NCBI GenBank assembly: GCA_016931535.1
Contig: JAFGEP010000157.1
Location: forward strand, 917 to 64,916
DNA length: 64,000 bases
Reading direction: 5' to 3'
Origin: Bradymonadales bacterium
GTDB lineage: Bacteria; Myxococcota_A; Bradymonadia; JAFGEP01
A model generated the notes under the pieces. The model was not told the DNA's origin and searched no databases. It saw only the letters and a list, made by a program, of their open reading frames with translations. A program made the position numbers and the translations under genes. Position 1 is the first letter of the stretch; every line of letters begins with the position of its first letter. Shown in pieces: positions 39,070 to 52,885 of the stretch.

Positions 39070-40168
39070 GACGGTCAAACGGGTGGAAGCACCAGAGGAG
39101 TTCGACGCGGAGCTGGACGAGCTCGAGAAGAAGATCGAACGCCTGCGCATCCTATACGAGCAGTATTTTCTAGGCATCGAAAAGCTGCCACCCTACAGCC
39201 TCCAGCAGGAGGTGGTGCGGATCTTCCACCAGTTCAGCACCTATCACATTCGCAAGACCAATCACAAGTTCCGTTACCAGGCACTGACCCAACGGTTCAA
39301 CGTCCACCGAGCCTACTGGCAACGGACCGTTCGGGCCATCGAGGAGGGGACCTACCAGCGGCACCGGTGGCGGGTGGAACGCCGGGAGCTGGCCCGTACC
39401 GGCGAGCTGATCGACAATGAAGAGCTGTCCAAGCGCAAGATCCTGGCGGAGCTGAAGGGAGATGAGGCGGTAGAGGAGCGCCGCCGGCGGATGCTACAGG
39501 CGGCGAACGAGGAGCTGGTGGCGCTGGGCTCGAACGGAGCGTTGCCTCAGCCAGCCCTGCTGCGCGGGATCGAGAGGCGGCTCAGGCGGCGCAAGAAACG
39601 GCTGAGGGCGCTGGAGGGGATCAGCGGGGTCCCCCTGGACGAGCTTCGGCGACGGGCGGAGGAGGCCAGGTCGGAACAGGAGACCTCGGGACAACCCTCC
39701 CTTCCAGGAGGGGATGTGGGGGCCGACCCATCGGCGACGCCGGTCGAACCGGCGGCCGGGCCTGCATTCGGGCCGGTCTTGCCAGCGGCAGGGGGGCCTG
39801 CGAGGCCGGGTCTGCTCGAGTTTCCCAAGCTGAGGGTGGCACTGGGCGGACAGGGCGATCCGGGACCGAGGATTCCGGTTCTGGGGCGCCAGGCAGTCCG
39901 ACCGCCGGTCGCTCCAACCAGCCATGGTGTCGATCGGACCTTGGCGGAGGCCGGGATCTCGAAGGAACGGGCCCAGCAGATCTACGACCAGTTCCTTGCG
40001 GCCAGACAGAAGAGCGGCCAGTCGGTGGAGCACATGACGTTCGATCGACTGGCGGAGTCGATGGCCCGGCAGGTGGTGAAGGCCCGGCAGACGCTGGGAG
40101 TGGAGCAGGTGGACTTCAACGTGGTCAGCAAGGAGGACAAGATCTTCCTCAAACCTGTGCCGAAGTGA
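39068..40168 (+). CDS. Hypothetical protein (charged, helical, Arg-rich N-terminal half; conserved-looking C-terminal ~90 aa)
   Basis: 366 aa. Its ATG at 39068-39070 overlaps the ATG of the divergent binding-protein gene (complement of 39067-39069). Its stop overlaps the GTG start of the ABC ATPase gene. Confidence 0.5.
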   Translation: MTVKRVEAPEEFDAELDELEKKIERLRILYEQYFLGIEKLPPYSLQQEVVRIFHQFSTYHIRKTNHKFRYQALTQRFNVHRAYWQRTVRAIEEGTYQRHRWRVERRELARTGELIDNEELSKRKILAELKGDEAVEERRRRMLQAANEELVALGSNGALPQPALLRGIERRLRRRKKRLRALEGISGVPLDELRRRAEEARSEQETSGQPSLPGGDVGADPSATPVEPAAGPAFGPVLPAAGGPARPGLLEFPKLRVALGGQGDPGPRIPVLGRQAVRPPVAPTSHGVDRTLAEAGISKERAQQIYDQFLAARQKSGQSVEHMTFDRLAESMARQVVKARQTLGVEQVDFNVVSKEDKIFLKPVPK

Positions 40169-40980
40169 AGCGGTCGACCTCTCCTCCACCAAGTGCATCC
40201 CCGGACAATCTCAGGGCGCTCGACATCGAGGTTCACCTGGGTCAACGTGCGGTGCTCAAGGCGGTGACCCTGGAGCTCGATCCGGGTGAGCGGGTGGCGG
40301 TGGTCGGTCCCAACGGGTGTGGCAAGACGACGCTGCTGCGGGCGTTGGCCGGGCTGGTTCCCTTACGCAGGGGCGAGGTCGAGATGGAAGGGGCCAATCT
40401 CCGGCGGATCGGTCGACGAGCGACCGCCCGGAAGATCGCCTACATGCCGCAGCAGTGGTCGGCCGCCTTTCCTTTGACCTGTCTGGAGACGGTGCTGTTG
40501 GGGCGGAGTCCGCACAAGCGCTGGCTGGGTCTGGCCGACGAGAGCGATGTGCGCTTGGCGCAGGAGGTCATGGAGCGATTGGAGGTGTGGTCTCTGGCCG
40601 ACAGGCCGATCACCTCGGTGAGTGGCGGGGAGTTGCAGCGATGCCTGTTTGCTCGGACCCTGGTGCAGCAGGGTCGGTTCTTGCTGTTGGATGAGCCCAC
40701 CAGCGCTCAAGATCCGAAGGGTAGCCTGGCTGTCATGGAGATGCTGAGAACCAAGGGGGATGAGGGGGTGGGCATCCTGGCGGCGGTACACGACTTGAAC
40801 CTGGCACTCTGGTTTTTCGATCGCCTGGTCGTCCTGAAGGGGGGGAATGTCATCGGAGAGGGTCTGCCGGAGTCGGTTCTGGCGCGCGGAGTACTGGAGG
40901 AGGCGTTCGATGTGCCTCTGGCGCGAGTGGGAGAGGAGGGACGTGCCTTGGTGGTGGCCGGTTTTCGGCCGGTGGAGTGA
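40165..40980 (+). CDS. ABC transporter ATP-binding protein (FepC/BtuD-type)
   Basis: Walker A (GPNGCGKTT), ABC signature (VSGGELQRC), Walker B (LLLDEPTSAQD), H-loop (AVHDLNLA). Confidence 0.85.
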   Translation: MKRSTSPPPSASPDNLRALDIEVHLGQRAVLKAVTLELDPGERVAVVGPNGCGKTTLLRALAGLVPLRRGEVEMEGANLRRIGRRATARKIAYMPQQWSAAFPLTCLETVLLGRSPHKRWLGLADESDVRLAQEVMERLEVWSLADRPITSVSGGELQRCLFARTLVQQGRFLLLDEPTSAQDPKGSLAVMEMLRTKGDEGVGILAAVHDLNLALWFFDRLVVLKGGNVIGEGLPESVLARGVLEEAFDVPLARVGEEGRALVVAGFRPVE

Positions 40981-40995
40981 GGGGGTTTGACGGGC

Positions 40996-42018
40996 ATGGG
41001 ACATCGAGTGGGCCATCTGCTGGTGACCGGAGGGGCCGGATACCTGGGATCCCACGTAGTGCTGAGGCTGCAGCGGTCCGGCTTCAGGGTGACTGTGGTG
41101 GACGATCTCTCCAGCGGGGGGGGGGCCGGCGAAAGGCCAGGCGATCCGTTTGTGCGGATGGATGTCCGGGACCGAGCGGCGATGGCGGCCCTGTTGTCCC
41201 GGCTGAAACCGGAGGCGGTGATCCACCTGGCGGGGCGGCATCGACTGGACGTCTCATTCGAGGAGCCGGAGGTATGTGCCGAGGTCAACCTGGGGGGCAC
41301 CGCCTGCCTGCTGTCGGCCATGCGGGAGGCGGGAGCGAGCAGGCTGATCTTGGCTTCCGGTCTGTGCGTGTACGGATGTCCGCCCTCAGGAAGGGTGGCT
41401 GAGGGATCTCCCCGGATGCCGAGCTCACCGCTGGGTCGGGTGATGGTGGCGGTCGAGCAGCTGCTGGAGGATGCCGGCCAGGCCTTCGGGCTCAAGTCGG
41501 TAATCCTGCGGGTGGCCCATCTGGCGGGAGCGGAGGAGGAACTTGCTCAGCGCGAAGGGTGCGAGTGTTGGGGAGGGGTGGTGGGACGACTGGCTCGGGC
41601 GGCGGTGCGAGGCGATCGGGCCAGGCCGTTTGTTGTGCCCTGTGCCGGAGATCAAGGACAATGGAACCGACCTCAGGCGCTGGATCTGCTGCACGTGAGC
41701 GATGCTGCGGCGGCGTTTGAGGCGGTCCTGGCCAGGTTGAGGGCTGGCAGCCACCTGCCGGTGGCCTTCAATGTGGCCAGCGGAAAGGCGATCTCCCTGG
41801 TGGAGCTGGTGGAGATGGCTCGGGAGTTGAGCGGCCTGCCGGTGCCAGCCGTTCGTGGCCCGTTGGGTCGGGGGGAGGCGGAAAGTCTGGAAGCGGACAG
41901 CCGGTTGCTGACGGAACGTACCGGATGGAGCCCAAAGCGGTCCTGGGCCAGAGAGATCCTCGCCTCGGCGCTGGAATGGGAGAGACGGGGGGTCCACAAG
42001 GCGCCTGTCGGCAGCTGA
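40996..42018 (+). CDS. NAD-dependent epimerase/dehydratase (SDR family, GalE-like)
   Basis: VTGGAGYLGSHVV Rossmann motif. Overall extended-SDR architecture. Confidence 0.7.
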   Translation: MGHRVGHLLVTGGAGYLGSHVVLRLQRSGFRVTVVDDLSSGGGAGERPGDPFVRMDVRDRAAMAALLSRLKPEAVIHLAGRHRLDVSFEEPEVCAEVNLGGTACLLSAMREAGASRLILASGLCVYGCPPSGRVAEGSPRMPSSPLGRVMVAVEQLLEDAGQAFGLKSVILRVAHLAGAEEELAQREGCECWGGVVGRLARAAVRGDRARPFVVPCAGDQGQWNRPQALDLLHVSDAAAAFEAVLARLRAGSHLPVAFNVASGKAISLVELVEMARELSGLPVPAVRGPLGRGEAESLEADSRLLTERTGWSPKRSWAREILASALEWERRGVHKAPVGS

Positions 42019-42033
42019 CGGAGGAGGATCCGG

Positions 42034-42888
42034 TTGTACCCTTGTTTTTTCGTGTCGGATCTGCACGGCCACCTGGATCGGTACGACAAGCTGCTGCATG
42101 CGGTACGGGTGGAAAAGCCCCGTGCGGTGCTGCTGGGGGGAGACCTGTTACCCTCCGCTTTGGCGTGGGCCAAGGGGGCAGATGCCGATTTCCTCCACGA
42201 CTGGCTGGCGGTCCGGCTGGGCCTGTTGTCGGAGGAGATGGGGGAGGAGTATCCCCGGATTCTGGTCATCCTGGGCAACGACGATCCGCGGGTGGAAGAG
42301 GAGGGTGTGCTGCAGATCGCGGCTCGAGGTCTTTGCGAATATGTACACGAACGCAAGGTTCCGCTGGGCGGGTTCGATCTCTACGGTTACGCCTACGTCC
42401 CGCCGAGCCCCTACTTGTTGAAGGACTGGGAGCGCTACGACGTCTCGCGTTACGTGGATGTGGGGTGCGTCTCGCCGGAGGAGGGGATGAGGACGGTCGC
42501 CATGTCAGCCGCCGAGATGCGCTTTTCTACCATTCGCGATGACCTGGACCGGCTGGTGGGGGAAGCAGCGCTCGATCGGGCCGTCCTGCTGTTCCATGCT
42601 CCGCCCTACCAGAGCAAGCTGGATCGGGCGGCGTTGGATGGAAGGTCGGTGGATGGCGTGGAGATGGACGTCCATGTGGGGAGTATCGCCATTCGCCGTT
42701 TCATCGAGGCGCGCCAGCCCGCGATCACCCTGCACGGCCACGTGCACGAGTCGGCCAGGCTCACCGGTTCCTGGCGTGACCGGATCGGCCGGACCCACCT
42801 GTTTTCTGGGGCTCACGATGGTCCCGAGCTGGCCCTGGTACGGTTCGATCCCGAACGGCCGGGGGAGGCGAACAGAGAGCTGCTCTAG
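42034..42888 (+). CDS. Metallophosphoesterase (calcineurin-like)
   Basis: FFVSDLHGHLD, LGGDLLP and HGHVHE metal-ligand motifs. Confidence 0.65.
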   Translation: MYPCFFVSDLHGHLDRYDKLLHAVRVEKPRAVLLGGDLLPSALAWAKGADADFLHDWLAVRLGLLSEEMGEEYPRILVILGNDDPRVEEEGVLQIAARGLCEYVHERKVPLGGFDLYGYAYVPPSPYLLKDWERYDVSRYVDVGCVSPEEGMRTVAMSAAEMRFSTIRDDLDRLVGEAALDRAVLLFHAPPYQSKLDRAALDGRSVDGVEMDVHVGSIAIRRFIEARQPAITLHGHVHESARLTGSWRDRIGRTHLFSGAHDGPELALVRFDPERPGEANRELL

Positions 42889-42903: not shown

Positions 42904-44481
42904 TCACGGTAAAAAGAGTGGGCCGAAGGTCAGGTCATCGATGGTGAGATCGGGATCGCTCAGGTATCCGCCAGCCGGTCGGACATCGAGCGAGCCGATG
43001 GGGGTATCGGAGGAAACCTGGATGAAGTCGGTGCCGGCGGAGTCGGTGGTTCGCGTGGCGAGCAGCTCGCCGGCGGTATCGAAGAAGTCCACCGAGAGGC
43101 CTCCTGGCCAGGTTTGGCCGAGGTAGAGCTCGACCGATCGGGTAGCGGCCTGGGTCGGGTCCCCGGGTCCGGGCATGAGGAAGGTGGCGCGCACGTTGCC
43201 CAACCAGTAGCCGCTGCCCGAGGCGGGATTGTTGTCCTTGGTCGCACAGGAGTTGCCCTCCGAGCGGGAGCGGAGCTCGTAGGGGTTGGTGCAGACGACG
43301 GCATCGGATCGGTCGGTTGAGAAGCGCACGCCGGCGGCGAGGTAGAGCTCCTGGACGTCGAGGTCGACCGCGAGGCTGTTGCCATCGAGGTCGGTGTCGA
43401 AGTCGATCTGGCCACCGCATAAGCCGTTGCCGCCATCGGCAAAGGTGCAGGCGTAGGTCAAGGGGCAATGGCTGTTGTCGCAGCAGTAGTCGCCGGTGAC
43501 CTCCGAGGTGCACTGGCCGGTCTGGCAGGCGTGACCCTGGGCGCAGTCGCACAGGTTTTCACAGCTGTTTCCGCCGCAGGCGTTGGGTTGGGGGGTGTCG
43601 GGGCGATGCGTGATCTCCTCCAGCGGACGAAGGGAGCGGGCTGGGTAGTTCAGGCAGGCGACGTTCCAGTAGTACCCGACATCGGGGAACTGGGTGGGAT
43701 CGACGGTGAGGGTTTCTGCGAGGTCGTCGTCGAAGTAGATGCGGACCTCGGCGTTGACGGGGGTAGACATCATTCCGCTCCGGGAGGCGTAGTAGACCAG
43801 GATCCGGTAGGGCTCGTCGGTTGGCTGGGGGAGCAGGACGGTCTCGGGGGCGGCGCTTCCCTGGTGGACATCACCGGAATGGAGGGGGTTGTCGGACAGG
43901 GAGTGGGGGTTCGACCACTCGGGGTTGAGGTTGTTCCAATAGCAATCGTTGGGATCGAGGGTCTGGGAGCCCAGCACGCCGTCTTTGTTGAGGAAGTGGA
44001 GGTCCAGGTCGGCTGCGGTAGCGTCCCAGCTCAGCTCGATGCGGATGCCCAGATCGACGTCTTCGCAGACGCTGTCCTCGTCGGTCCAGCCGTCGCAGTC
44101 GTTGTCTCGTCCGTCGCAGATCTCCGGGAGGTCGTCGCAAGGGGGGGGCGAATCGGGGTCGGTGCCGGCGTCGGGTGGGGGTTGGGTGTCGGTCTCGGTC
44201 GAGGTGTCGGGTGGCAGCAGGTCGGCGGTGAGATCGGCGGGATCCATGGGCGTATCGCGGCCGAGGTCGCCTGGTTCGGCTTGATCTGAGGGAAGTTCTT
44301 GGCCGGTGTCCGTGGGGGAGGTGGCGTCGAGTCTGACCACGCAGATGTTCCCGATGCATTCTTGATCGCCGGGGCAATCGCTGGTCTGTGAGCAGCGGGC
44401 AGAGTAGCTCTCGGTTTTGCATGCCGTGGCGATGGATCCCAAAAGCAGGCAGGCGGCGAGCCAGGTGAGAAGCGATCTCAT
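42904..44481 (-). CDS. Cys-rich lipoprotein with MopE-like motif and shared C-terminal domain (paralog of the 5308..6789 product)
   Basis: GGAGG RBS. Signal peptide MRSLLTWLAACLLLGSIATAC. CDGRDNDCDGWTDEDSVC motif. IRIELSWDATAADLDLHFLNKDG...DCYWNN matches IELTWYLEE...DLDLHLRR...DNCYWDNC in the other protein. Confidence 0.55.
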   Translation of the reverse strand: MRSLLTWLAACLLLGSIATACKTESYSARCSQTSDCPGDQECIGNICVVRLDATSPTDTGQELPSDQAEPGDLGRDTPMDPADLTADLLPPDTSTETDTQPPPDAGTDPDSPPPCDDLPEICDGRDNDCDGWTDEDSVCEDVDLGIRIELSWDATAADLDLHFLNKDGVLGSQTLDPNDCYWNNLNPEWSNPHSLSDNPLHSGDVHQGSAAPETVLLPQPTDEPYRILVYYASRSGMMSTPVNAEVRIYFDDDLAETLTVDPTQFPDVGYYWNVACLNYPARSLRPLEEITHRPDTPQPNACGGNSCENLCDCAQGHACQTGQCTSEVTGDYCCDNSHCPLTYACTFADGGNGLCGGQIDFDTDLDGNSLAVDLDVQELYLAAGVRFSTDRSDAVVCTNPYELRSRSEGNSCATKDNNPASGSGYWLGNVRATFLMPGPGDPTQAATRSVELYLGQTWPGGLSVDFFDTAGELLATRTTDSAGTDFIQVSSDTPIGSLDVRPAGGYLSDPDLTIDDLTFGPLFLP

Positions 44482-44561
44482 GGGAAAACCTCCGTTTCGA
44501 CCCGATACCATGGTAGTCAAAAGCATGTCCGGTGTACACAGTGGCACCGGTTGGGGTCGGT

Positions 44562-47500
44562 TTACACCGGGACAGGCGGTTCTCCCTTGAGCGCCAACCT
44601 GCGGGCGGGGTCGGTGATGGCGTTGATCTTGACGGCGAAGCTGGTGCGCTTGGCGATGTCCTGGTCGGTGACCAGGTGGATATCGAGGAGGCCGTTGGTG
44701 CGGTATCCGGTTTTGAGGTAGTTCACCTCGGAGAGGCAGAGGCTCCAGCCTTCGAGCCAGTCGAGCAGCGCCTGGCGTTGTGCAGGGGTGCTGCGGATGT
44801 GGAGGAGGAGATCGATGTCGCTGCCGGGTCCTGCGCTGGCGTTCTTGGTGCTGCCGAACAGGTAGAGCGCCTGGACGCCGAAACGGGCGGGGTCAAGGTC
44901 GGAGGCGACCTGGGCAGCCATTTTCCATCGCCATCGCCAGTGCTCGTCGGCGTGATGCTGGGTGCCGCTCTGGTACTCGGGGATGTGGTCTTTTCGCTCG
45001 CCGGGGCTGGTGAGGAAGCCGATGGCCTCCTCCAGGTCGGCGTTCATCAAGATGCGCAGGATGCGGTCGCCGGTGGTGGCGGGGATATCGACGACCCGGA
45101 TGGTGTCGGCCAGCGAGGCGAATTCGGGGAGGATCTTGGGGAGCAGGTTCGGTGCGCCGCGCAGGAGCCGTTCGTTGAAGAAGATGCCTGGGTTATCGGG
45201 GTAGAGGGGGAGGTATCGGATGGAGGATTCGACCAGGTCCTGGAAGAAGTGGGTGCCGAAGGAGAGATCGGGCACGTAGTTGCCTTTTTTTCGGGCGATT
45301 TCGACCAGCATGGCGGTGTTGTTGATGTCGGAGTAGGTGACGGAGACTCCCAGCTTGATGTCGCCACGGCTGCCCCAGCGACCCGGTCCCATCAGGATGA
45401 ACTGGCGCTTGGGGAGGAGGGTGTTGAGGCGACTGATGGCTCGACCCACGGAGAGCATCTCCTGCCGACTGGGGAGATCGCCATAGCGCATGGGATCGAC
45501 GTAGACCACGTGGGTGATATCCGGGATCCAGCCGTTGGATACGTGCTGATTGGCGGTGAAGACGATGTCCTGGGGGTGGATGTCCTTGGGGATAGGGGCG
45601 GGGGTGTCGCCTTGGGAGACGTACTGGGGCCGGCACTGCAGGAGGTAGAAGTCGGTTCCGTCGTGGGCGAACTCGATGTCGACGGGGTGACCCAGGGCTT
45701 CCTGGAGGACCTTCAAGATGGAGCCGGTCTTCTGAACGAAGTGGGAGTTGGTGATGAGTCCGTCGAAGGTGGCCACGGCCTGGTCGGTCTCGGGGTCGAA
45801 CAGGAGGGCCAGGGGTCGTGTGAGGTGGTTGTCGCGCAGGAGGGAGAAGATGGACTCGAAGGCGGGGAATTCGGATCCGACCTCGAGCAGGAGGTCTTGG
45901 ATGGCGAGGGTCTGGAAGGAGCCGGTCTGGAGGTTGATCACGTCGATCTGTCGAGGGCAGTATCGCAGGAGCTCTTCGATGCTGACGTTGACGCGGAGGT
46001 TGGGTTGTCCTGGGACGGCCAGGATGGGGTAGTCATCGCCCAGGCGATCCACAGCGCGTGTTCCGAGCCCTGGCACCAGGCGGATGAGGCCGTCTTCGCG
46101 CTTGATTCTGGGCGACCAGCGGAACTCGTTGTTGCTGAAGGCGACGCCGGCGAAAGCGGGCAGGAAGTAACGACCGACGCGGGTTCCGACGACCTCCTGG
46201 AGGAGGACCCCCATCTCCTCGTCGAAGTCGAGCAGGCCGTGTTGGCGGCGATACTCGATGGGGTCGGGGGAGAAGATGGAGGCGTAGATCTCGGCGATGG
46301 CGTCGAGCAGGGCGGAGAGGCGTTCCTGGAGGGCCCCCTGGTTGGCGAGGAAGAGGCTCTTGTATTTGCCGGAGAAGGCGGTGCCGAAGCGATCTTCGAG
46401 GAGACTGGAGCTGCGGACGATGATGGGGACGTCCCCCAGGTCGGAGATGGCGAGGGAGAGCCCTCGGACCAGATCGGGGGGGAAGCAGGAGTTTTTGAAC
46501 AGCTGGACGATGTTGGGGTAGTCCTGTCGTATCTGTTCGACCTCTTTGTACTTGTGCTCGAACATCTCCTCCAGGTCGTTGTAGACGATGAAGTCCTTGA
46601 TACCGCTGGAGGCGACGTACCAGGTGCTGGGGATCTTGAAGGGGGGGAGTTGAGGTTCCTGGCCCTTGGCTTTTTCGAGGATGCGGGCGGCCAGAAACAG
46701 GCCGGCGCCTTTGCCGCCCAGCTTGCCCTGTCCCTCGGGGGTGGAGACGAGGTGATCGAGCAGGGGGGCGAAGTCTCGGACATCGAGGTACTCTTTGGCG
46801 ACCACGATGAAGTCGATCTGCTCGGTGAGGATGCGGCGGGTGAGAGAGACGCGCAGGCCGTTGGAGATGTGCTGGGAGAGCGATTCGCTTTCGGCGACCA
46901 TGGCCCGAAACCGCCTGAGGGCGTCCGCCACGTCGGGAAGGGGGGCGTGCATGTTGTTGAGGACCTTGAGGATGGCGCCCAGGTTGTCTTCCTGGAACCA
47001 ACGCTGCACGCGGGAGAGGATCTCTTCGTCGGTCAGGTATTTCGATGCCAGCTCGAAGGGGTGATCGCTGGCCAGCCATTCGTTGTCTACGGCCCGTTTG
47101 CGGCCGGGGTAGTTGACCTCGCCGCTGTTTTCGGCAGAGCCGATGGGGCAGGGGTCCCATTCGAGGAGACGTTGTTGGGCCTCCTCGATGCCGATTCCGC
47201 AGAGGTAGTTGAGCAGTTTGCGGGCGATTCGGACATAGAGGGAGCGGTCCGACTGACGGAGCAGGCGCAAGGGGCCTCGCCATTCGCCGCGCCGGTCGGG
47301 GGAAGGGGCCTTGTGGACCTGTTCCAGCTCCTGGCGGGCACTTTTCATTTGCAGGTACAGGGCGAACTGGCCGAGCCGTCTGGCGACGGATTGGAGGAGC
47401 TGCTCTTCCTCTTTGAGGAAGGGCCCGACATCGGCGGTTGGCCGGGATTCGGTGTAGTAGACGGTCAACCGGCCGAGGACCTGGTTGTGTACCAGGATGT

Positions 47501-47756
47501 CGGCGGCAAGGGTCCAGGGTGTAGAGAGGCTGTTGTCGGTGGAGTAGAGCTGGCCTTCGAACAGGATGGAGGCCTGGCAGATGTCGGAGTATTGCCAGCC
47601 TTTGGGGAGGATCTTGACCACCCCTTCGAAGACGGAGGCGAGCGTGGCATCGGGCTGGTTGCAGAGTTCTTCGACCTGGTAGAGGCAGCTCAACTCCTTG
47701 GTGCGTTCCTGCAAGGATGTCAACAGCTTGTCGACGGGGCTGGAGGGTTCACTCAT
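44562..47756 (-). CDS. Multidomain protein: N-terminal GAF-like region + PEP-synthase/PPDK N-terminal (ATP-grasp-like, PPDK_N) domain + C-terminal Pol-beta-type nucleotidyltransferase domain
   Basis: GGKGAGLFLAARIL and IIVRSSSLLEDRFGTAFSGKYKSLFL match the GGKxxxL and VRSSAxxEDxxxxSFAGQ motifs of the PEP synthase/PPDK nucleotide-binding domain. No GGxxSHAA phosphohistidine motif. C-terminal LYLFGSTKNASAGPGSDIDLLLHI is a GS...D.D nucleotidyltransferase signature. 1064 aa. Confidence 0.7.
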   Translation of the reverse strand: MSEPSSPVDKLLTSLQERTKELSCLYQVEELCNQPDATLASVFEGVVKILPKGWQYSDICQASILFEGQLYSTDNSLSTPWTLAADILVHNQVLGRLTVYYTESRPTADVGPFLKEEEQLLQSVARRLGQFALYLQMKSARQELEQVHKAPSPDRRGEWRGPLRLLRQSDRSLYVRIARKLLNYLCGIGIEEAQQRLLEWDPCPIGSAENSGEVNYPGRKRAVDNEWLASDHPFELASKYLTDEEILSRVQRWFQEDNLGAILKVLNNMHAPLPDVADALRRFRAMVAESESLSQHISNGLRVSLTRRILTEQIDFIVVAKEYLDVRDFAPLLDHLVSTPEGQGKLGGKGAGLFLAARILEKAKGQEPQLPPFKIPSTWYVASSGIKDFIVYNDLEEMFEHKYKEVEQIRQDYPNIVQLFKNSCFPPDLVRGLSLAISDLGDVPIIVRSSSLLEDRFGTAFSGKYKSLFLANQGALQERLSALLDAIAEIYASIFSPDPIEYRRQHGLLDFDEEMGVLLQEVVGTRVGRYFLPAFAGVAFSNNEFRWSPRIKREDGLIRLVPGLGTRAVDRLGDDYPILAVPGQPNLRVNVSIEELLRYCPRQIDVINLQTGSFQTLAIQDLLLEVGSEFPAFESIFSLLRDNHLTRPLALLFDPETDQAVATFDGLITNSHFVQKTGSILKVLQEALGHPVDIEFAHDGTDFYLLQCRPQYVSQGDTPAPIPKDIHPQDIVFTANQHVSNGWIPDITHVVYVDPMRYGDLPSRQEMLSVGRAISRLNTLLPKRQFILMGPGRWGSRGDIKLGVSVTYSDINNTAMLVEIARKKGNYVPDLSFGTHFFQDLVESSIRYLPLYPDNPGIFFNERLLRGAPNLLPKILPEFASLADTIRVVDIPATTGDRILRILMNADLEEAIGFLTSPGERKDHIPEYQSGTQHHADEHWRWRWKMAAQVASDLDPARFGVQALYLFGSTKNASAGPGSDIDLLLHIRSTPAQRQALLDWLEGWSLCLSEVNYLKTGYRTNGLLDIHLVTDQDIAKRTSFAVKINAITDPARRLALKGEPPVPV

Positions 47757-49509
47757 GGTGTTTCACCACCGCTCTTGCCCGACGTCCATCGGCCTGGACG
47801 AACAGTGGCACCGATGTGCGGACATGCTTGACGAACCGGCCTTCCGCGATGGTCTCTTGGCGGGAGAGCCAATCGTAATCAATACCATAGCGGCCGGCAT
47901 GGGGTAGGGAAAGGTAGAGGACCCGAAAAGCGATCAGGTTGTGGAAGAAGTGGGAGCCCTGACTCAGATCGGGGTTGACCTCGGGAAGTGTGGCCTCGAC
48001 GATGACCTGTGCGCCGCAGATCTGTCCCCACTCGACCGGGATCCCCATCCAGGGGTCGGTGCTGCCCCATCTTCCGAAGCCGATGAGGAGGTAGGGTCGG
48101 GATTCCGCGAGGAGAACGCGGTTTCGCTGCTCGATCTCGGCTGCGATCTGGTGGGTATAGCTCGTGTCGAACGCCTCGGGCTTGACGAACACCACATCCT
48201 GGATGGAGCGGCAGATGCCGTGGCCGAGGACGGACTGGGAGGCCAGAAGCACATCGGGGCCTTGCATCTCGTGGGGTTCCAGGGAGATGGCCTGGTCATA
48301 GAGCATCATGGGCCTGACCTGCAGAAACCCCAGCTGAGCGGGCGGCTTTCCTCTGGGATCGAGGTTGACCGCGAACTCGATCTCGACATCGGACTGGAGG
48401 GTGTGACGGGCGAGGTCGAGCAGGCGTCTGATCAGCGGGTTGAGCGGCAGGCGCTGGGAGACCAGGAGGGGGGCGAAGGTGAGGATGCGCGGCCCAGGTC
48501 GGCCGATGCCGGGGAACAGCCGGTCGGAGCGTGGGTCGTAGGTGGAGGCGATCAGATCGAGGGAACCTTCTCGCTCGGCCTGCTCGAGGGGGGCCCTGAC
48601 CAGGTACTCGGTTTCGCGGATGGGGTCGGGCATGGGGGGGGGACCCATGTGAACGGCCCAGTACTCGGTCTGGGTGTTCTTGAGCATGTCGGAGAGGCTC
48701 TTGTAGGGGGGGGGCGCCTTGGGACGGGTGGGGGCGTAGGTCCAGCAGATCCCACCATCCACGATGGTCTTCCCCAGGCCGAGGGCCAGATTGACGACGC
48801 CGTCCTCCGGGTTGGTCCCCGAGGTGGGGTAATAGTTGAAGGAGCGGGCCACTCCGGAGAGCGTTGGATAGAAGCGGTTGTGGCGGCGTTGGCCCACGAT
48901 CTCCTGGATGATGACCGCCATGCCCTCGATGTCCGGAGGCTGGCCGATGGAGCGGAGGTAGCTCTTGGCGGCACGGAAAAAGGTGGAAGCGTAGACGAAC
49001 TTGATCGCCTCGACCAGCTTGCGGAAACGGGTGTCGATGTCCGGCTGGTTGTTGGGGATCATCTTGGTGGCGTAGACGCCGGCAAAGGGGTGGTCGAGTT
49101 GGTCCTCCAACAGGCTGGAGGAGCGGACGGCAAGGGGGGAGTGCACCTGGGTGATGAGGGCACGGAGATCGCCCAGGATGAGAGGCGAGAGGTCGGCCTT
49201 CTGGAAGGCATGGGCGATCCGGTCATCGGGCTGATCGGACAGAGCGATGGGGTAGAGGTCGTTGTGACGCAAGAAGGTGTGGAAGGTATCGGTGGCCAGC
49301 ACCGCAGCGATGGGCACGCGCACCTGGAAATCGGGATGTGTGTCGGGCGACAGGGCGGACAGGATCTTCTGCTGGATCAGGACCAGGCCGGACGCTTTGC
49401 CGCCCAGTGCGCCAGAGCCGATGCGGCTGAGGACCTGGGAGGGGTCGAAGAACTGGCGATTGAAGGGGGGGATGGAGGATTCGGCGGCGAGCGGCATCAG
49501 ACTCTCCAC
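47749..49509 (-). CDS. PEP-synthase/PPDK N-terminal (PPDK_N) domain protein, paralog of the N-terminal ATP-grasp module of the downstream gene
   Basis: GGKASGLVLIQ and LAVRSSSLLEDQLDHPFAGVYATKMIP motifs. Second-half motifs (LIGFGRWGSTDPWMGIPV...SQGSHFFHNLI) align with LMGPGRWGSRGDIKLGVSV...SFGTHFFQDLV in the neighbour. No phosphohistidine domain seen. 8-bp overlap with the next gene. Confidence 0.7.
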   Translation of the reverse strand: MESLMPLAAESSIPPFNRQFFDPSQVLSRIGSGALGGKASGLVLIQQKILSALSPDTHPDFQVRVPIAAVLATDTFHTFLRHNDLYPIALSDQPDDRIAHAFQKADLSPLILGDLRALITQVHSPLAVRSSSLLEDQLDHPFAGVYATKMIPNNQPDIDTRFRKLVEAIKFVYASTFFRAAKSYLRSIGQPPDIEGMAVIIQEIVGQRRHNRFYPTLSGVARSFNYYPTSGTNPEDGVVNLALGLGKTIVDGGICWTYAPTRPKAPPPYKSLSDMLKNTQTEYWAVHMGPPPMPDPIRETEYLVRAPLEQAEREGSLDLIASTYDPRSDRLFPGIGRPGPRILTFAPLLVSQRLPLNPLIRRLLDLARHTLQSDVEIEFAVNLDPRGKPPAQLGFLQVRPMMLYDQAISLEPHEMQGPDVLLASQSVLGHGICRSIQDVVFVKPEAFDTSYTHQIAAEIEQRNRVLLAESRPYLLIGFGRWGSTDPWMGIPVEWGQICGAQVIVEATLPEVNPDLSQGSHFFHNLIAFRVLYLSLPHAGRYGIDYDWLSRQETIAEGRFVKHVRTSVPLFVQADGRRARAVVKHHE

Positions 49510-49610: not shown

Positions 49611-50900
49611 TCATACCCAGCCCCGGTCGCGGCAGGCCTCGGCCACCCGGCTGACGGAGATCACATAGGCGGCATCGCGCATGAACAGTTTTTTCTTGCG
49701 AGCCAGCTCGTAGACCGAGGCGAAGGCGGAGGTCATCTTGATGTCCAGCTTGCCGAGCACCTCGTCGATCTCCCAGTAGTAGTTCATGTTGCTCTGGACC
49801 TGCTCGAAGTAGCTGCAGGTGACGCCGCCGGCGTTGGCCAGGAAGTCGGGGATGAGGAAGATCTCGCGCTTCTGGATGACCTGGTCGGCATCGGGTGTGG
49901 TAGGTCCGTTGGCCCCTTCGGCGATGACGCGCACCTTGGGGTGAACGCGTTCGACGTTGTCGGCGGTGACCTGGTTTTCGAGGGCGGCGGGGATGAGGAT
50001 GTCGACCTCCTGTTCGATCCACTGGGGTCCGGCAAGGATCTCGTAGCCGAAGTCGCGGGCCTTGTTCTTGTCGATCCCGCCGAAGCGATCGGTGATGGAG
50101 CGGAGGGTCTGGAGGTTCACGCCGTCGGCCTTGCGGAAGGTATAGGAGGTGCTGTCGGTCTGATCCCAGCAGGAGACGGCGACCACGGTGCCGCCGATCT
50201 GGTTGTACAGCTCGATGGTGTGCTGGGCGACATTGCCGAACCCCTGGACGCTGGCGGTGGTGTTTTCGGGTCGGATGTTGAGCTCCTTGAGCGCCTCACG
50301 CAGGGTATAGACGACGCCATAGCCGGTGGCCTGGGTACGGCCGACCGAGCCGCCCATCCCCACCGGTTTCCCGGTGATGACGCCAGGGTGGTGGCCTCCG
50401 TGAATGGCCTCGTACTCATCGAGCATCCAGAGCATGTGTTGGGGGTTGGTCCAGACGTCGGGTGCGGGGACATCGACGAGCGGTCCGATCTCGCGGGCGA
50501 GGGCGCGGATGTAGGCGCGGCAGAGGCGTTCCTGCTCGCGCATGCTGAGGTGGTGGGGATCGCAGATGATCCCGCCTTTGGAGCCGCCGAGGGGGATTTC
50601 GACCACGGAGCATTTCCAGGTCATCCACATGGCGAGGGCGCGGATGGTATCGATGGTTTCCTGGGGATGGAACCGGATGCCGCCTTTGCCGGGTCCCCGC
50701 GCGTCGTTGTGAAGGACGCGGAAACCGCGGAAAATTCTGACGGCGTTGTCATCCATGCGGACGGGCAAGAGGAAGTGATGCTCCTTGACAGGAGAGCGGA
50801 GCAGCTCACGGGTGGCTGCATCGAGGCCGATGAGATCGGCGATTCGATCGAACTGTGCTCTGGCCATCTCGAATGGATTGAAGGACCCTTGTGCGGACAT
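49611..50900 (-). CDS. gdhA: Glutamate dehydrogenase (Glu/Leu/Phe/Val dehydrogenase family)
   Basis: GPGKGGIRFHP active-site glycine-rich motif. NAD(P)-binding GFGNVAQ. About 429 aa from the Met preceded by a GGGAG RBS. The start coordinate is uncertain by 1-2 nt. The ORF extends further upstream through a Pro-rich stretch. Confidence 0.85.
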   Translation of the reverse strand: MSAQGSFNPFEMARAQFDRIADLIGLDAATRELLRSPVKEHHFLLPVRMDDNAVRIFRGFRVLHNDARGPGKGGIRFHPQETIDTIRALAMWMTWKCSVVEIPLGGSKGGIICDPHHLSMREQERLCRAYIRALAREIGPLVDVPAPDVWTNPQHMLWMLDEYEAIHGGHHPGVITGKPVGMGGSVGRTQATGYGVVYTLREALKELNIRPENTTASVQGFGNVAQHTIELYNQIGGTVVAVSCWDQTDSTSYTFRKADGVNLQTLRSITDRFGGIDKNKARDFGYEILAGPQWIEQEVDILIPAALENQVTADNVERVHPKVRVIAEGANGPTTPDADQVIQKREIFLIPDFLANAGGVTCSYFEQVQSNMNYYWEIDEVLGKLDIKMTSAFASVYELARKKKLFMRDAAYVISVSRVAEACRDRGWV

Positions 50901-51178
50901 GATGATGACTCCCATGAACAAAGGGTAAGTAATGAACGGTACGTTTACCGCGCCGGCAGGGAAAGTCAAGCCGCACAGGGGTTGAGGTTGCGCCAGGGAC
51001 GAAAGGGGGCGAGGACCGACCGGGCGCGGGATGGTGGAATCATCCACAGTTGTTGTTCCAGGGAAGGGTCTGTAGTAACATGAGCGACAATCCGCAGGGT
51101 TTGTCACAGGTACCGCCCTGCAGGGGGTGGGCATCGGGAGCAGGCCTGGCGGATTTTTCACAAGGCAAAAGCGTGGTG

Positions 51179-52885
51179 ATGCAACAAGAGGTATTCAACG
51201 GGTTTCAGCCTGGCGACGTGGTCGATGGTCGCTATGAGATCGTGGACACCATCGGACAGGGTGGATTCGGTATCGTGTATCGAGCCCGCCAGGTGGCCAT
51301 CGGCCGGATGGTCGCATTGAAGGTGCTGCTTCCCGAGGCCGACACGGTGGATCCGATGGCGGTGGAGCGGTTCAAGCGGGAAGCGATGCTGATCAGCAGC
51401 CTGGAGAGCCCCAACACCATTACCTTGATCGAGTTTGGCCAGACCCGGCAGGGGGTGCTGTACACGGTGATGGAGTTCGCCAAGGGCATCACCTTGCGGG
51501 ATATGCTGGCGCAGCAGGGCAAGCTCCCACCTGAACGGACGGTGCATATCGTGCGACAGGTGTTGACCAGCCTGCACGAGGCGCACCTCAGGGGGATTGT
51601 CCATCGGGATCTCAAGCCGGCCAACATCATGATCGGCGAGTTCGCCGGACAAAAAGACCACGTGAAGGTGCTGGACTTCGGCATCGCCAAGATCCTGAAG
51701 TCCGGCGCAGACACGCAGAGCACGCTGGCCTTGACCGGGCGGATCGTGGGAACCCCCAAGTACATGTCGCCCGAGCAGATCCGTGGGGTGACCCCCACGC
51801 CGGCTGCCGACCTGTATGCCATGGGCCTGATCTTGTACGAGATGTTGACCGGGGTGCCGGCGATTCAGGCCACCGAACCGATGGAACAGGTAGAGGCCCA
51901 GCTGCGCAAGGAGGACATCACCCTGCCGCCCAATCTGCCCGGCGTACCGTCGGCGCTGGTCAACGTGGTCAACCGCGCGCTCAAGAAAAATGCTACGGAG
52001 CGGTTCAACTCGGCCGAGGACTTCATCCAGGCCATGGACGGAGCGATATCGAAACAGCAGGTGGTGGGCGGCCTGGCAGCAGCGGTGACGGTCCAGCGGC
52101 AGGCGGTGGTTCCGGTGGCCGGCTCCAGCCTGAATGTGGGCGGCCAGCGGATCATCGGGGCGCCATCCGCCACTGGGGCCACCCTGGCCCAGCCGGAGGA
52201 AGAAGGGGGCAGCTCGTTGGGACCCTACCTGATCGTGGCGGTCATCCTGTTCCTGGTGGCGGCGGCAGGGACGGTCTTCATGATGATCCGAAGCAAGTCG
52301 GGAGGGGGGGCATCCGCGCCGGAGGGTTTCGACGCGGCGCTGCAGCAGACCGGTGTGGGCGAACCCGATGCCGCCATGGCCCTGGCCGAGACCGATCTGC
52401 CCTCCAGTCCGGGGCTGGAGCCCGACCTCGGTGTGGCGGCGCTGGGTTCGCCGGACCAGGGGGTCGGAGAGGCGGACGCGGGAGTCATGCAAGGGGCTCC
52501 GGATACGGTCGAGGAACCGGTCGCATACCCGGTGCCCCCGGTAGAGGTTCCGCCACCGCAGGAGCCTTCGGTGGCGAGAGAAATCCCACCCGTCGAGGTA
52601 ACACAGCCACCGGTTCCGCCCACGCAACCCGTGGTGCCGCGGACCGTGGAGGTCGAGATCGTGACCAGCCCGAGCCGAGCGCGCGTCACGGTGGGGCGCG
52701 ATCGGGTCTGCAGCAGCACGCCCTGTACCATCGAGGTGCCAGCAGACGGCAGTATTTCAGCCCGGATATCCCGGTCGGGCTACGAGTCGGAACGGGTCGA
52801 TATTTCGGCCAGCGATGCGCCTCGCATCGAGGTGCGGTTGAGAGAGCGGGAGCCAGAGGAAGAAGAGATCGTGCCCATTGACTAA
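51179..52885 (+). CDS. Ser/Thr protein kinase with TM segment and C-terminal PEGA domain
   Basis: GQGGFGIVY, ALKVL, HRDLKPANIM, DFGIAK and MSPEQ motifs. TM segment YLIVAVILFLVAAAG. C-terminal PEGA-like VEVEIVTSPSRARVTV...GYESERVDI. An alternative upstream ATG at 51080 is possible. Confidence 0.8.
   Translation: MQQEVFNGFQPGDVVDGRYEIVDTIGQGGFGIVYRARQVAIGRMVALKVLLPEADTVDPMAVERFKREAMLISSLESPNTITLIEFGQTRQGVLYTVMEFAKGITLRDMLAQQGKLPPERTVHIVRQVLTSLHEAHLRGIVHRDLKPANIMIGEFAGQKDHVKVLDFGIAKILKSGADTQSTLALTGRIVGTPKYMSPEQIRGVTPTPAADLYAMGLILYEMLTGVPAIQATEPMEQVEAQLRKEDITLPPNLPGVPSALVNVVNRALKKNATERFNSAEDFIQAMDGAISKQQVVGGLAAAVTVQRQAVVPVAGSSLNVGGQRIIGAPSATGATLAQPEEEGGSSLGPYLIVAVILFLVAAAGTVFMMIRSKSGGGASAPEGFDAALQQTGVGEPDAAMALAETDLPSSPGLEPDLGVAALGSPDQGVGEADAGVMQGAPDTVEEPVAYPVPPVEVPPPQEPSVAREIPPVEVTQPPVPPTQPVVPRTVEVEIVTSPSRARVTVGRDRVCSSTPCTIEVPADGSISARISRSGYESERVDISASDAPRIEVRLREREPEEEEIVPID

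Follow-up and report, generated by a model that had tools for sequence, protein, structure and literature searches.

The window analysed here is a stretch of 64,000 nucleotides from a Bradymonadales bacterium (contig JAFGEP010000157.1), in which gdhA, encoding glutamate dehydrogenase (GDH), is followed by two genes, here called B and A, then by a lipoprotein gene and by the metallophosphoesterase gene M (Table 1). The gdhA product matches Pfam ELFV_dehydrog_N (E 5e-51) and ELFV_dehydrog (E 2e-68) as well as the NCBIfam model GdhA_Arch (E 3e-138, yet under the equivalog cut-off), its ATG start at 50900 comes after GGGAG, and its N-terminus, MSAQGSFNPFEMA, agrees with that of homologues. The start codon of B is most likely ATG 49497 rather than GTG 49509, where the mechanical ORF begins, because GGAGAG lies just before the ATG and the deposited protein (P0121) also has 582 aa; residue positions in B are given in the 586-aa numbering that begins at GTG 49509. 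The stop codon of B (47749-47751) and the ATG of A (47756) define the 8-bp overlap reported in an earlier sequence-only reading of this DNA. Both translations are ordinary-looking proteins, and a protein identical to A has been deposited from a Bradymonadales MAG (P0001, JW797_19455). Homologues of A matched in more than 6,000 clusters at 90% identity, with 98-100% query coverage and 53-61% identity among the 120 matches listed. GC content is uniform across the locus, and a plus-strand ORF of 1099 aa (44532-47831) was rejected as the G/V/D/E/A-rich shadow of a gene with 63-65% GC.

Table 1. Genes and protein domains of the locus (coordinates in the window; B residues in 586-aa numbering)
Feature	Coordinates	Strand	Description
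gdhA, glutamate dehydrogenase	49611..50900	minus	429 aa; hexameric archaeal/Thermotoga-type GdhA
Gene B	47749..49497	minus	582 aa; PPDK_N ATP-grasp and domain X
B PPDK_N ATP-grasp	48283..49410	minus	residues 34-409; Pfam PF01326, E 5.6e-30
B domain X	47752..48282	minus	residues 410-586; candidate divergent swivel/phospho-His domain
Gene A	44562..47756	minus	1064 aa; GAF, helical region, PPDK_N, domain X, minimal nucleotidyltransferase
A GAF domain (by predicted structure)	47307..47738	minus	~residues 7-150
A all-helical region	46737..47306	minus	~residues 151-340, between GAF and ATP-grasp; conserved
A PPDK_N ATP-grasp	45582..46724	minus	residues 345-725; Pfam PF01326, E 6e-54
A domain X	44952..45581	minus	~residues 726-935; paralogous to B domain X
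A minimal Pol-beta-type nucleotidyltransferase	44565..44951	minus	~residues 936-1064
Cys-rich lipoprotein gene	42904-44547	minus	weak MopE motif
Metallophosphoesterase M	42034..42888	plus	284 aa; convergent to A; Pfam Metallophos, E 1.6e-8

Domain organization of A and B

In both proteins the ATP-grasp domain recognized by the sequence-only reading is retrieved by Pfam as PPDK_N, and all the nucleotide-binding and nucleotidyltransferase (NTase) motifs quoted there are present. The PPDK_N motifs are GGKASGL at 36, VRSSSLLED at 128, IEFA at 377 and LQVRP at 396 in B, and GGKGAGL at 347, VRSSSLLED at 447, IEFA at 694 and LQCRP at 706 in A, together with FSGKY in A and FAGVY in B. GGK, RSSSLLED and ExEF...LQxRP presumably contain, as in PPDK, the ATP- and Mg-binding residues; the motif columns are at least 90% conserved in the A and B families, and the PPDK_N domain of A has long nearly invariant runs across phyla. 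Neither protein matches PF00391 or PF02896 in Pfam, even at E<=1, and both lack the SH[AG]A motif as well as the canonical GGxTSHAA. Their scores against the NCBIfam PpsA, PPDK, RPH and PigC equivalogs are all far under the cut-offs (50-54 bits for the PEP synthase/PPDK models, against 600-880 bits); PigC/RedH ligases and rifamycin phosphotransferases account for the NCBIfam matches outside the PEP-synthase models. With no PEP/pyruvate TIM barrel and equivalog scores this low, A and B are, on sequence grounds, not PEP synthases, as had been anticipated.

The sequence-only reading had also held that A and B have no phosphohistidine domain, which is true of GGxTSHAA and PF00391 but probably wrong as a general statement. 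C-terminal to the ATP-grasp, A and B share a domain of ~180 aa, here called domain X, to which Pfam assigns no annotation and in which a near-invariant His (SxG[ST]HFF) is placed at the N-terminus of a helix, a position also occupied by the catalytic His of dikinases. Domain X contains GFGRWGS from 477 and GSHFF from 518 in B (His520, codon 47950-47952), and GPGRWGS from 790 and GTHFF from 834 in A (His836, codon 45249-45251), the His-bearing motif being invariant within the A family. Among 154 copies (50%-identity representatives) the His is 99% conserved and R76, G78, E101 and G114 are 100% conserved. In total, 2,298 representatives match domain X, which follows PPDK_N in all 10 representatives checked for architecture, and its predicted model has a pLDDT of 90. 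No sequence link to PF00391 was found (Pfam at E<=1; domain X profile against PDB), hhalign against E. coli PpsA gave a probability of 0.1, and Foldseek against PDB returned nothing significant. Judging from topology and motif resemblance, domain X is probably a highly diverged His domain of the swivel type, with its His as a candidate counterpart of the dikinase His, so that the most parsimonious chemistry for the ATP-grasp would be dikinase-like His phosphorylation. The invariant polar residues R76, D81 and E101 are more than a passive carrier requires, and domain X may be catalytic in some other way.

The remaining domains belong to A only. Its N-terminus, described earlier as GAF-like, is predicted by structure to be a genuine sensor-type GAF domain. 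The helical region that follows has no Pfam match, contains the invariant residues W159, D170, G189, N215, A237 and R282, and might serve as a linker or bind an acceptor. At the C-terminus, the motif FGSTKN...SDIDLL belongs to a catalytic set (G968-S969, D980-x-D982, D1025) that is nearly invariant in the family; residues 958-998 match Pfam NTP_transf_2 with 24.2 bits (cut-off 21), Polbeta and MTPAP-like models match too, and the profile retrieved only nucleotidyltransferases from PDB (kanamycin NTase, minimal NTases, TUTases/poly(A) polymerases, ANT(3'')(9)). These matches identify the Pol-beta-fold nucleotidyltransferase that had been proposed.

Conserved gene order and paralogs

In 67 of the 73 assessable loci the directly preceding gene is a gdh in the same orientation, giving the order gdh-B-A (51 loci) or gdh-A (16 loci); the latter order indicates that B is not essential to the role of A. 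A B homologue immediately precedes A in about three quarters of the loci, with a median gap of 2 nt and many overlapping pairs, and in some genomes the two are fused in proteins of ~1,630 aa. The gdh-linked module occurs in more than 10 phyla, with loci from Myxococcota, Acidobacteriota, Ignavibacteria, Zixibacteria, Calditrichota, Planctomycetota, Eisenbacteria, Fermentibacteria and others. No fusion of GDH to A or B was seen, and gene adjacency alone is no proof that GDH is the target. Of 63 assessable loci, 35 have an M homologue no more than 1.5 kb downstream of A, convergent in 32 cases and co-directional in 3; in the Bradymonadales genome M and A are parted by the lineage-specific lipoprotein gene.

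The module is a conserved set formed by gdhA, B in most loci, A and often a metallophosphoesterase. The two-gene module of the sequence-only reading is thus conserved as a pair but belongs to a larger set, and of the two neighbours named there, both correctly positioned, the lipoprotein is only weakly MopE-like and gdhA, taken as a mere landmark, is the strongest functional clue. Given their position directly behind gdh in more than 10 phyla, A and B probably control or assist glutamate dehydrogenase. At 50-60%, their cross-phylum identity is in our judgement on the high side for regulatory proteins, and it would be compatible with a core metabolic enzyme as well.

A second, diverged ELFV dehydrogenase is paired with a third paralog, REC-DUF5752-PPDK_N-X, whose gene runs either in the same direction as the dehydrogenase gene or divergently from it. 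Family members combine the PPDK_N-X core with GAF or receiver domains, many of them having an N-terminal receiver-like domain, and these fusions, with the conserved adjoining metallophosphoesterase, give the system a regulatory flavour. Other contexts include a member adjoining an NfnA/PyrK-like flavoprotein (L087), a member of 1,524 aa followed after 15 bp by a LuxR-type response regulator (L084) and a member adjoining lgt (L085).

Possible mechanism and alternatives

We tentatively favour the possibility that A and B are a ligand-gated, ATP-driven system of phospho-His and nucleotidyl transfer acting on GDH. B and A would be paralogous ATP-dependent dikinase-like enzymes acting together, probably as a hetero-oligomer, as suggested by the overlapping genes (consistent with coupled translation) and by the fusion in some genomes. 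Each PPDK_N would bind ATP and phosphorylate the His of its own domain X (His836 in A, His520 in B), which would serve as a strongly diverged swivel-type phospho-carrier; a precedent for this chemistry is the combination of ATP-grasp and swivel His in RPH and in the two-component dikinases HpeHI, PpsAB and CreHI (PMC4844700, PMC12167813). Since A and B have no built-in substrate-binding domain (neither a TIM barrel nor an RPH-like insert), the phosphoryl group would pass to an acceptor supplied in trans, the likeliest being the GDH encoded immediately upstream or a GDH-bound ligand. The GAF domain of A would gate the activity by a metabolite, and the GAF domains of NifA and EI-Ntr suggest, by analogy, 2-oxoglutarate, glutamine or glutamate as suitable candidates, while the C-terminal NTase could NMP-ylate the same target and the frequently adjacent metallophosphoesterase would remove the modification. 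Together these steps would let GDH be switched reversibly by covalent modification, in a logic akin to that by which GlnE and GlnD act on glutamine synthetase and PII, and to EI-Ntr signalling, which is independent of ATP.

Alternatively, A and B could be a metabolic partner of GDH, that is a dikinase activating a GDH substrate or intermediate, for example by phosphorylating 2-oxoglutarate at its enol or carbinolamine oxygen, in the manner of PigC-type carbonyl activation for a nitrogen nucleophile; conversion of ATP to AMP + 2 Pi would pull the GDH reaction, possibly allowing high-affinity ammonium assimilation, and the GAF and REC domains would merely tune a costly enzyme. This would agree with the full-length identity and long invariant runs of A and B across phyla, with an operon-like order with gdh that can be read as co-transcription, with the small-molecule enzymes among the NCBIfam matches, and with the known characterized PPDK_N + swivel relatives, which all act on small molecules or glucans (PMC12167813, PMC4844700). 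We nevertheless consider it rather unlikely, as no small-molecule binding domain is recognizable between ATP-grasp and X, and the receiver fusions of the paralogs, the NTase and the phosphoesterase are more suggestive of signalling or of covalent modification. It also counts against such a partnership that we know of no chemistry of this kind for GDH. A dikinase for a small molecule or polymer unrelated to the GDH protein, next to gdh only through shared carbon/nitrogen transcriptional control, appears distinctly unlikely: the ATP-grasp and swivel-like core resembles that of RPH-type dikinases and a few members are found elsewhere, but the gdh synteny across distant phyla and the independent pairing of a second paralog subfamily with a second dehydrogenase count against it. 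The second pairing is otherwise hard to explain and argues for a direct functional link.

It seems improbable that, as the sequence-only reading had it, the ATP-grasps only bind nucleotide, with no phospho-His, and the output comes from the NTase as adenylylation or a signalling nucleotide. The invariant NTase catalytic residues, the missing canonical motif and PF00391, and a swivel fold of X that Foldseek did not confirm are consistent with it, but B and the REC-type paralogs, devoid of the NTase, keep PPDK_N and X with the same invariant His, which places the core chemistry in PPDK_N-X, and the signature motifs of PPDK_N are kept in both A and B. To our knowledge, minimal NTases are not cyclic or oligonucleotide synthases, and nothing specific was found in support of signalling-nucleotide synthesis. 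We also give little credence to PPDK_N-X as a new ATP-driven histidine autokinase feeding His-to-Asp phosphorelays, with A and B as a receiver-less branch signalling to another protein. The frequent N-terminal receiver-like domains, more simply read as inputs, and the response regulator gene of L084, a lone and anecdotal case, would fit such an autokinase, but A and B have no receiver and none was seen among the conserved neighbours of gdh-B-A loci.

Comparison with known systems

In agreement with the sequence-only reading, no described system with the architecture of A and B was found in the literature. The best NCBIfam and PDB sequence matches are RPH and PigC/RedH (PRK06241-like "PEP synthase" paralogs), which have the same PPDK_N ATP-grasp, a conserved-His swivel fold (a candidate one in A and B) C-terminal to it and no PEP/pyruvate TIM barrel. 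A and B differ from them in having no substrate-binding domain between ATP-grasp and His domain, a putative swivel unrecognizable by sequence, with SxG[ST]HFF instead of T/SxxGGxxxH (PMC12167813), extra GAF and NTase domains, paired or fused paralogs and the linkage to gdh. Phenylphosphate synthase PpsAB, CreHI and HpeHI are likewise encoded by two adjacent genes whose PEP-synthase-like products act together, by a dikinase mechanism yielding AMP + Pi via phospho-His (PMC12167813). There, the ATP-grasp forms a subunit on its own and the swivel and substrate-binding domains lie together on the second, whereas A and B each have a complete ATP-grasp and X and are thus paralogs rather than a split enzyme, in a context other than aromatic catabolism. 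With PEP synthase and PPDK they share the PF01326 ATP-grasp and a probable phospho-carrier of the same fold class, without PF02896 or PF00391.

The C-terminus of A matches the MntA and PDC-S09 models of minimal NTases (MNT-HEPN) over the GS...DxD core, but it is embedded in a protein of 1064 aa with no HEPN partner, and the housekeeping-like synteny and uniform GC make the locus otherwise unlike a toxin-antitoxin or defence module. Enzyme I-Ntr (PtsP) shares the tie to nitrogen metabolism: its GAF domain is reported to sense glutamine and 2-oxoglutarate, and PTS-Ntr is reportedly linked to glutamine deprivation. The donor for A and B would instead be ATP via the ATP-grasp, not PEP via a TIM barrel; they have no HPr-binding subdomain, neither NPr nor EIIA-Ntr was seen as a partner, and A has an additional NTase. 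GlnE (GS adenylyltransferase) and GlnD (PII uridylyltransferase) are Pol-beta-fold NTases that reversibly modify an enzyme or regulator of nitrogen assimilation in response to glutamine and 2-oxoglutarate. Although the NTase of A is a minimal one (~125 aa, MNT/KNTase-like) rather than of GlnE or GlnD type, fused to dikinase-like domains and with a putative target, the same logic is proposed here for its combination with the GAF domain and the phosphoesterase.

Gene calls and domain content of the A-B pair

Because the GC content of the window is 62-68%, long open reading frames occur on both strands. The minus-strand genes A and B are real, as the sequence-only reading had held: their translations are normal proteins, a protein deposited from a Bradymonadales MAG (JW797_19455) is identical to A, and its neighbour JW797_19460 is B, with an annotated length of 582 aa that is consistent with a start at the ATG at 49497, preceded by GGAGAG. 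The overlap of 8 bp between the stop of B and the ATG of A was likewise confirmed. The plus-strand frame opposite A, rich in G, V, D, E and A, was rejected as a GC-rich shadow; being slightly longer than A, it is a trap for length-based gene calling in a GC-rich genome. A search of Rfam (E<=0.1, 42-53 kb of the window) found no regulatory RNA, and a promoter and terminator scan gave nothing exceeding the shuffled expectation.

Both proteins had been described as carrying a PPDK_N ATP-grasp domain without being PEP synthases, and both statements hold. In Pfam, PPDK_N (PF01326) is matched by residues 345-725 of A (E 6e-54) and 34-409 of B (E 5.6e-30); the nucleotide-binding motifs quoted earlier lie at the expected positions, and the GGK, RSSSLLED and ExEF...LQxRP signatures of PPDK_N are kept in both domains. 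The canonical SHAA-type motif, claimed to be absent, was found in neither protein by motif scan, and PF00391 and PF02896 gave no Pfam match in A or B, even at E<=1. The NCBIfam models of PpsA, PPDK, RPH and PigC match the ATP-grasp part only, with scores at least tenfold under their cut-offs (34-38 bits against 999-1300 for the RPH and PigC equivalogs), and in the PDB, too, the sequence matches to RPH and PEP synthase do not extend beyond the ATP-grasp. The missing PF02896 and the low PpsA and PPDK equivalog scores thus argue against PEP synthases.

The ends of A also agree with what had been read from the sequence, namely a sensor-like N-terminus and a Pol-beta-fold nucleotidyltransferase at the C-terminus. 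NTP_transf_2 (PF01909) is matched in Pfam by residues 958-998 with 24.2 bits, above the cut-off of 21. The motif reads FGSTKNASAGPGSDIDLLLH, then LLDIH, so that hG[GS]x9-13Dh[DE]h and the third acidic residue are present, and G968, S969, D980, D982 and D1025 are invariant across the A family. A profile of the last ~140 residues retrieved from the PDB only Pol-beta-fold nucleotidyltransferases (kanamycin NTase, minimal NTases, TUTases and ANT(3'')(9); E 0.016-0.1), with the GS...DxD core aligned. The N-terminal region has a GAF fold, an antiparallel sheet with helices on its flanks, and its best structural neighbours include the GAF domains of NifA and EI-Ntr. These respond to 2-oxoglutarate and glutamine, and ligands of this type are by analogy attractive candidates for A.

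A conserved domain following the ATP-grasp

A and B align to each other with 27% identity overall (E 8e-32), and the alignment extends ~130-180 residues beyond PPDK_N. This region, domain X, has no Pfam annotation and holds the most conserved motifs of the two families, in which G-x-G-R-W-G-[ST] and S-x-G-[ST]-H-F-F are found. A profile search of 1.84 billion representatives retrieved 2,298 proteins with X, which follows PPDK_N directly in all 10 of the architectures checked. Among 154 copies the His is conserved in 99%, and R76, G78, G85, E101 and G114 in 100%. In a structure model of residues 405-586 of B, built on 88 aligned homologues of A and B (pLDDT 90, pTM 0.89), this His (fragment His116, equivalent to B His520 and A His836) is predicted to sit where a helix begins, beyond a strand and a loop that contains Gly. 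The structures of PPDK and Enzyme I have their catalytic His in the same kind of position.

Further correspondences with the swivel domain of E. coli PpsA, drawn by eye and carrying no statistical support, are an N-terminal GxG hairpin, TDPxW after the second strand and a C-terminal V-x-V-D-G-x-x-G-x-V. In a Smith-Waterman comparison of X with the PpsA swivel region 122 of 500 shuffles reached the observed score, and hhalign of X against E. coli PpsA gave a probability of 0.1. The X profile had a single, spurious match among all PDB sequences (GxGRxG to KtrA), and Foldseek with the X model found nothing significant in the PDB. X is therefore probably a swivel-type domain, a highly diverged one, and it does not belong to PF00391. 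It is here that the sequence-only reading, whose observations were otherwise essentially correct, is probably wrong, since it claimed that a phosphohistidine domain was absent and X, with its invariant-His motif, is probably one of swivel type.

Genomic context of the gene set

Synteny was studied in 80 loci from species-representative genomes, by clustering of their open reading frames and then targeted tblastn. In about three quarters of them A is directly preceded by a homologue of B, with a median gap of 2 nt and many overlaps of 4-8 nt; the pair is therefore conserved as neighbours in related genomes. Homologues of ~1,630 aa consist of B fused N-terminally to A, and in one of these, P0011, residues 19-573 match B at 49% identity. 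In one locus (L003) a 771-aa A-like protein, with a helical N-terminus, PPDK_N and X and without GAF and NTase, lies ~6 kb from the gdh-B-A set of the same genome, so that a pared-down version of the A-type core occurs too.

In 67 of the 73 assessable loci (51 with the order gdh-B-A and 16 with gdh-A), the next gene upstream, in the same orientation, is a gdh ~70% identical to the gdhA of the window. The loci belong to Myxococcota, Acidobacteriota (Holophagae, Thermoanaerobaculia, Aminicenantes, Terriglobia), Ignavibacteria/Melioribacter, Zixibacteria, Calditrichota, Planctomycetota, Eisenbacteria, Krumholzibacteria, Fermentibacteria, Cloacimonadota, Fibrobacterota, Spirochaetota and Anaerolineae. 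In the locus search at least 594 genomes, counted at species level, were matched; the protein clusters of the set number more than 6,000, with 50-60% identity across phyla. Of 63 loci, 35 have a metallophosphoesterase homologue no more than 1.5 kb downstream of A, usually convergent and three times on the same strand. For the window copy, M, the searches gave no closely related solved structure and no NCBIfam family that was informative.

The MopE-like lipoprotein and the Ser/Thr kinase were rejected as members of the system because neither is conserved in the 80 loci. The Cys-rich lipoprotein gene is lineage-specific and lies between A and M in this genome only. Its product has a signal like that of lipoproteins (MRSLLTWLAACLLLGSIATAC) and a single, weak metal-binding motif of MopE type (CDGRDNDCDGWTDE; Pfam E 8e-4, below the cut-off), and translation probably begins at an ATG near 44481 that GGAGG precedes, rather than at the GTG at 44547. 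The ABC transporter ATPase and the epimerase/dehydratase beyond M (39068-42018) appear unrelated.

A third subfamily of ~1,000 aa combines a receiver domain, DUF5752, PPDK_N and X. In at least 10 loci, independent metagenomic contigs among them, it adjoins, co-directionally or divergently, a second ELFV (Glu/Leu/Phe/Val) dehydrogenase, which is divergent and shares 31-36% identity with gdhA, often within the same supercluster as gdh-B-A; a separate family branch thus repeats the link of PPDK_N-X to ELFV dehydrogenases. No histidine kinase was present among the genes checked beside receiver-containing paralogs. Two further arrangements were observed. In L084 a protein with an unannotated N-terminus of ~970 aa, then PPDK_N and X, is followed after 15 bp by a LuxR-type response regulator, a pair that resembles a sensor and its regulator with no histidine kinase in view; in L087 a REC-PPDK_N-X protein precedes a flavoprotein subunit, another NAD(P)H-linked neighbour.

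Coordinates of the genes discussed, in the window and in related loci of other genomes or contigs (L numbers)
Feature	Location	Strand	Remark
Gene A	44562-47756	-	1064 aa
Gene B, open reading frame	47749-49509	-	586 aa
gdhA	49611-50900	-	429 aa, archaeal/Thermotoga-type
Metallophosphoesterase M	42034-42888	+	window copy, convergent to A
Shadow frame opposite A	44532-47831	+	1099 aa
Cys-rich lipoprotein	42904-44547	-
Ser/Thr protein kinase	51050-52885	+	C-terminal PEGA domain; divergent from gdhA
ABC transporter ATPase	40165-40980	+	downstream of M
NAD-dependent epimerase/dehydratase	40987-42018	+	downstream of M
Third subfamily member	L007:1111-4137	+
Third subfamily member	L063:14050-17283	-
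Third subfamily member	L016:1737-4712
Third subfamily member	L045:3814-6822
Third subfamily member	L052:14696-17683	-
Third subfamily member	L061
Third subfamily member	L082:1675-4647
Third subfamily member	L086:1475-4429	-
Long PPDK_N-X protein	L084:62-4636		1,524 aa
LuxR-type response regulator	L084:4651-5307		REC + GerE
REC-PPDK_N-X protein	L087:557-3004		815 aa
NfnA/PyrK-like flavoprotein subunit	L087:3138-3959		NAD_binding_1 + DHODB_Fe-S_bind
A-like protein	L003:18306-20621	-	771 aa

Proposed function and comparison with known systems

The architecture and synteny of the gene set are solid. Its conserved core of ATP-grasp and X, with an invariant His and no substrate-binding domain, makes dikinase chemistry the simplest reading. 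ATP would then serve to phosphorylate the His on X, a plausible step that we incline to accept, and the phosphoryl group would pass to an acceptor supplied in trans. Gene context nominates glutamate dehydrogenase (GDH) as the target; this is the weakest step of the model, and that GDH is acted upon directly is doubtful. The sensor fusions (GAF in A, a receiver in the paralogs), the intact minimal NTase and the recurrent phosphoesterase point to a signal-controlled, reversible covalent modification. The joining of PPDK_N-X to GAF or receiver domains also suggests a recruitment of dikinase chemistry for signalling. Set against this is the main rival, in which A and B would be a catalytic partner of GDH, with ATP driving the reaction at the substrate level, a reading that the unusually high conservation of both proteins would fit. 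Under reversible modification the partner metallophosphoesterase would undo the mark, giving a GlnE/GlnD-type switch for GDH made of dikinase parts. An ATP-driven modification system acting on GDH is, as an overall model, proposed tentatively. Its most detailed form, an unrecognised post-translational control of GDH by gdh-B-A(-M) in at least 10 phyla, with a GAF-gated phospho-His relay that is driven by the ATP-grasp and runs on X as a new swivel branch beyond recognition by sequence, a fused NTase and a phosphoesterase reversing the modification, is less likely than not. The sequence-only reading, which had guessed at a nucleotidyl-based activity, was partly right in its interpretation: the NTase stands, and phospho-His chemistry plausibly has to be added. 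That it knew of no described system with this architecture agrees with a literature search that gave none, and nothing on the gdh link.

The genes gdh, B, A and often the phosphoesterase form a widespread, strongly conserved and uncharacterised set of known domain types in a new combination, including a new sequence family of putatively swivel-like domains, which widens the sequence range known for phospho-His swivel domains if the probable assignment of X holds. In databases these proteins are annotated as "pyruvate, water dikinase", "nucleotidyltransferase" or "hypothetical". Many of the carrier lineages (Acidobacteriota, Ignavibacteria, Zixibacteria, Eisenbacteria, Planctomycetota, Myxococcota) matter in the environment and are mostly uncultured. 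GDH stands at the junction of carbon and nitrogen metabolism and, a few model species apart, how most bacteria regulate it is to our knowledge little understood. Should the set modify or drive GDH, it would represent a new regulatory or energetic principle in nitrogen metabolism, and misleading PEP-synthase annotations in metabolic reconstructions from MAGs would be corrected; much stands to be gained should it turn out to be a covalent switch for this enzyme or a device that couples energy to it.

The gene set is not a defence or toxin-antitoxin module. MNT-HEPN modules need an adjacent or fused HEPN, whereas A has only a likeness to the MNT core (PADLOC, E 7e-6 and weaker) and Pfam searches of A, B and their immediate neighbours gave no HEPN match; the weak MNT matches, the lack of a HEPN partner, the uniform GC and the housekeeping-like synteny led to rejection of a defence system.

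PEP synthase and PPDK (PpsA, PpdK) have the PPDK_N ATP-grasp in common with A and B, but their mobile phospho-His domain is recognisable as PF00391 with a GGxT(S/C)HAA motif and is followed by a C-terminal PEP/pyruvate-binding TIM barrel (PF02896), both without a Pfam counterpart in A or B. The closest characterised relatives are the RPH/PigC-type dikinases and the two-component dikinases PpsAB, CreHI and HpeHI (PMC4844700, PMC12167813). RPH and PigC carry a dedicated substrate-binding domain between the ATP-grasp and the swivel His, whereas X follows the ATP-grasp directly, with SxG[ST]HFF in place of the swivel motif T/SxxGGxxxH. In the two-component enzymes the ATP-grasp is on one subunit and the swivel and substrate-binding domains are on the other; by contrast, A and B are paralogs, each made of PPDK_N and X and aligning over both domains. 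Enzyme I and EI-Ntr of the PTS have a PEP-binding TIM barrel and an HPr-binding subdomain, and A and B lack a Pfam match to PF02896 or PF05524; what they share with EI-Ntr is the logic of a GAF coupled to a phospho-His. GlnE and GlnD, finally, have family-specific NTases (GlnE, GlnD_UR_UTase), with HD and ACT domains in GlnD, for which A and B give no Pfam or NCBIfam match, and their likeness to A is one of logic only, that of an NTase-based control of nitrogen assimilation.
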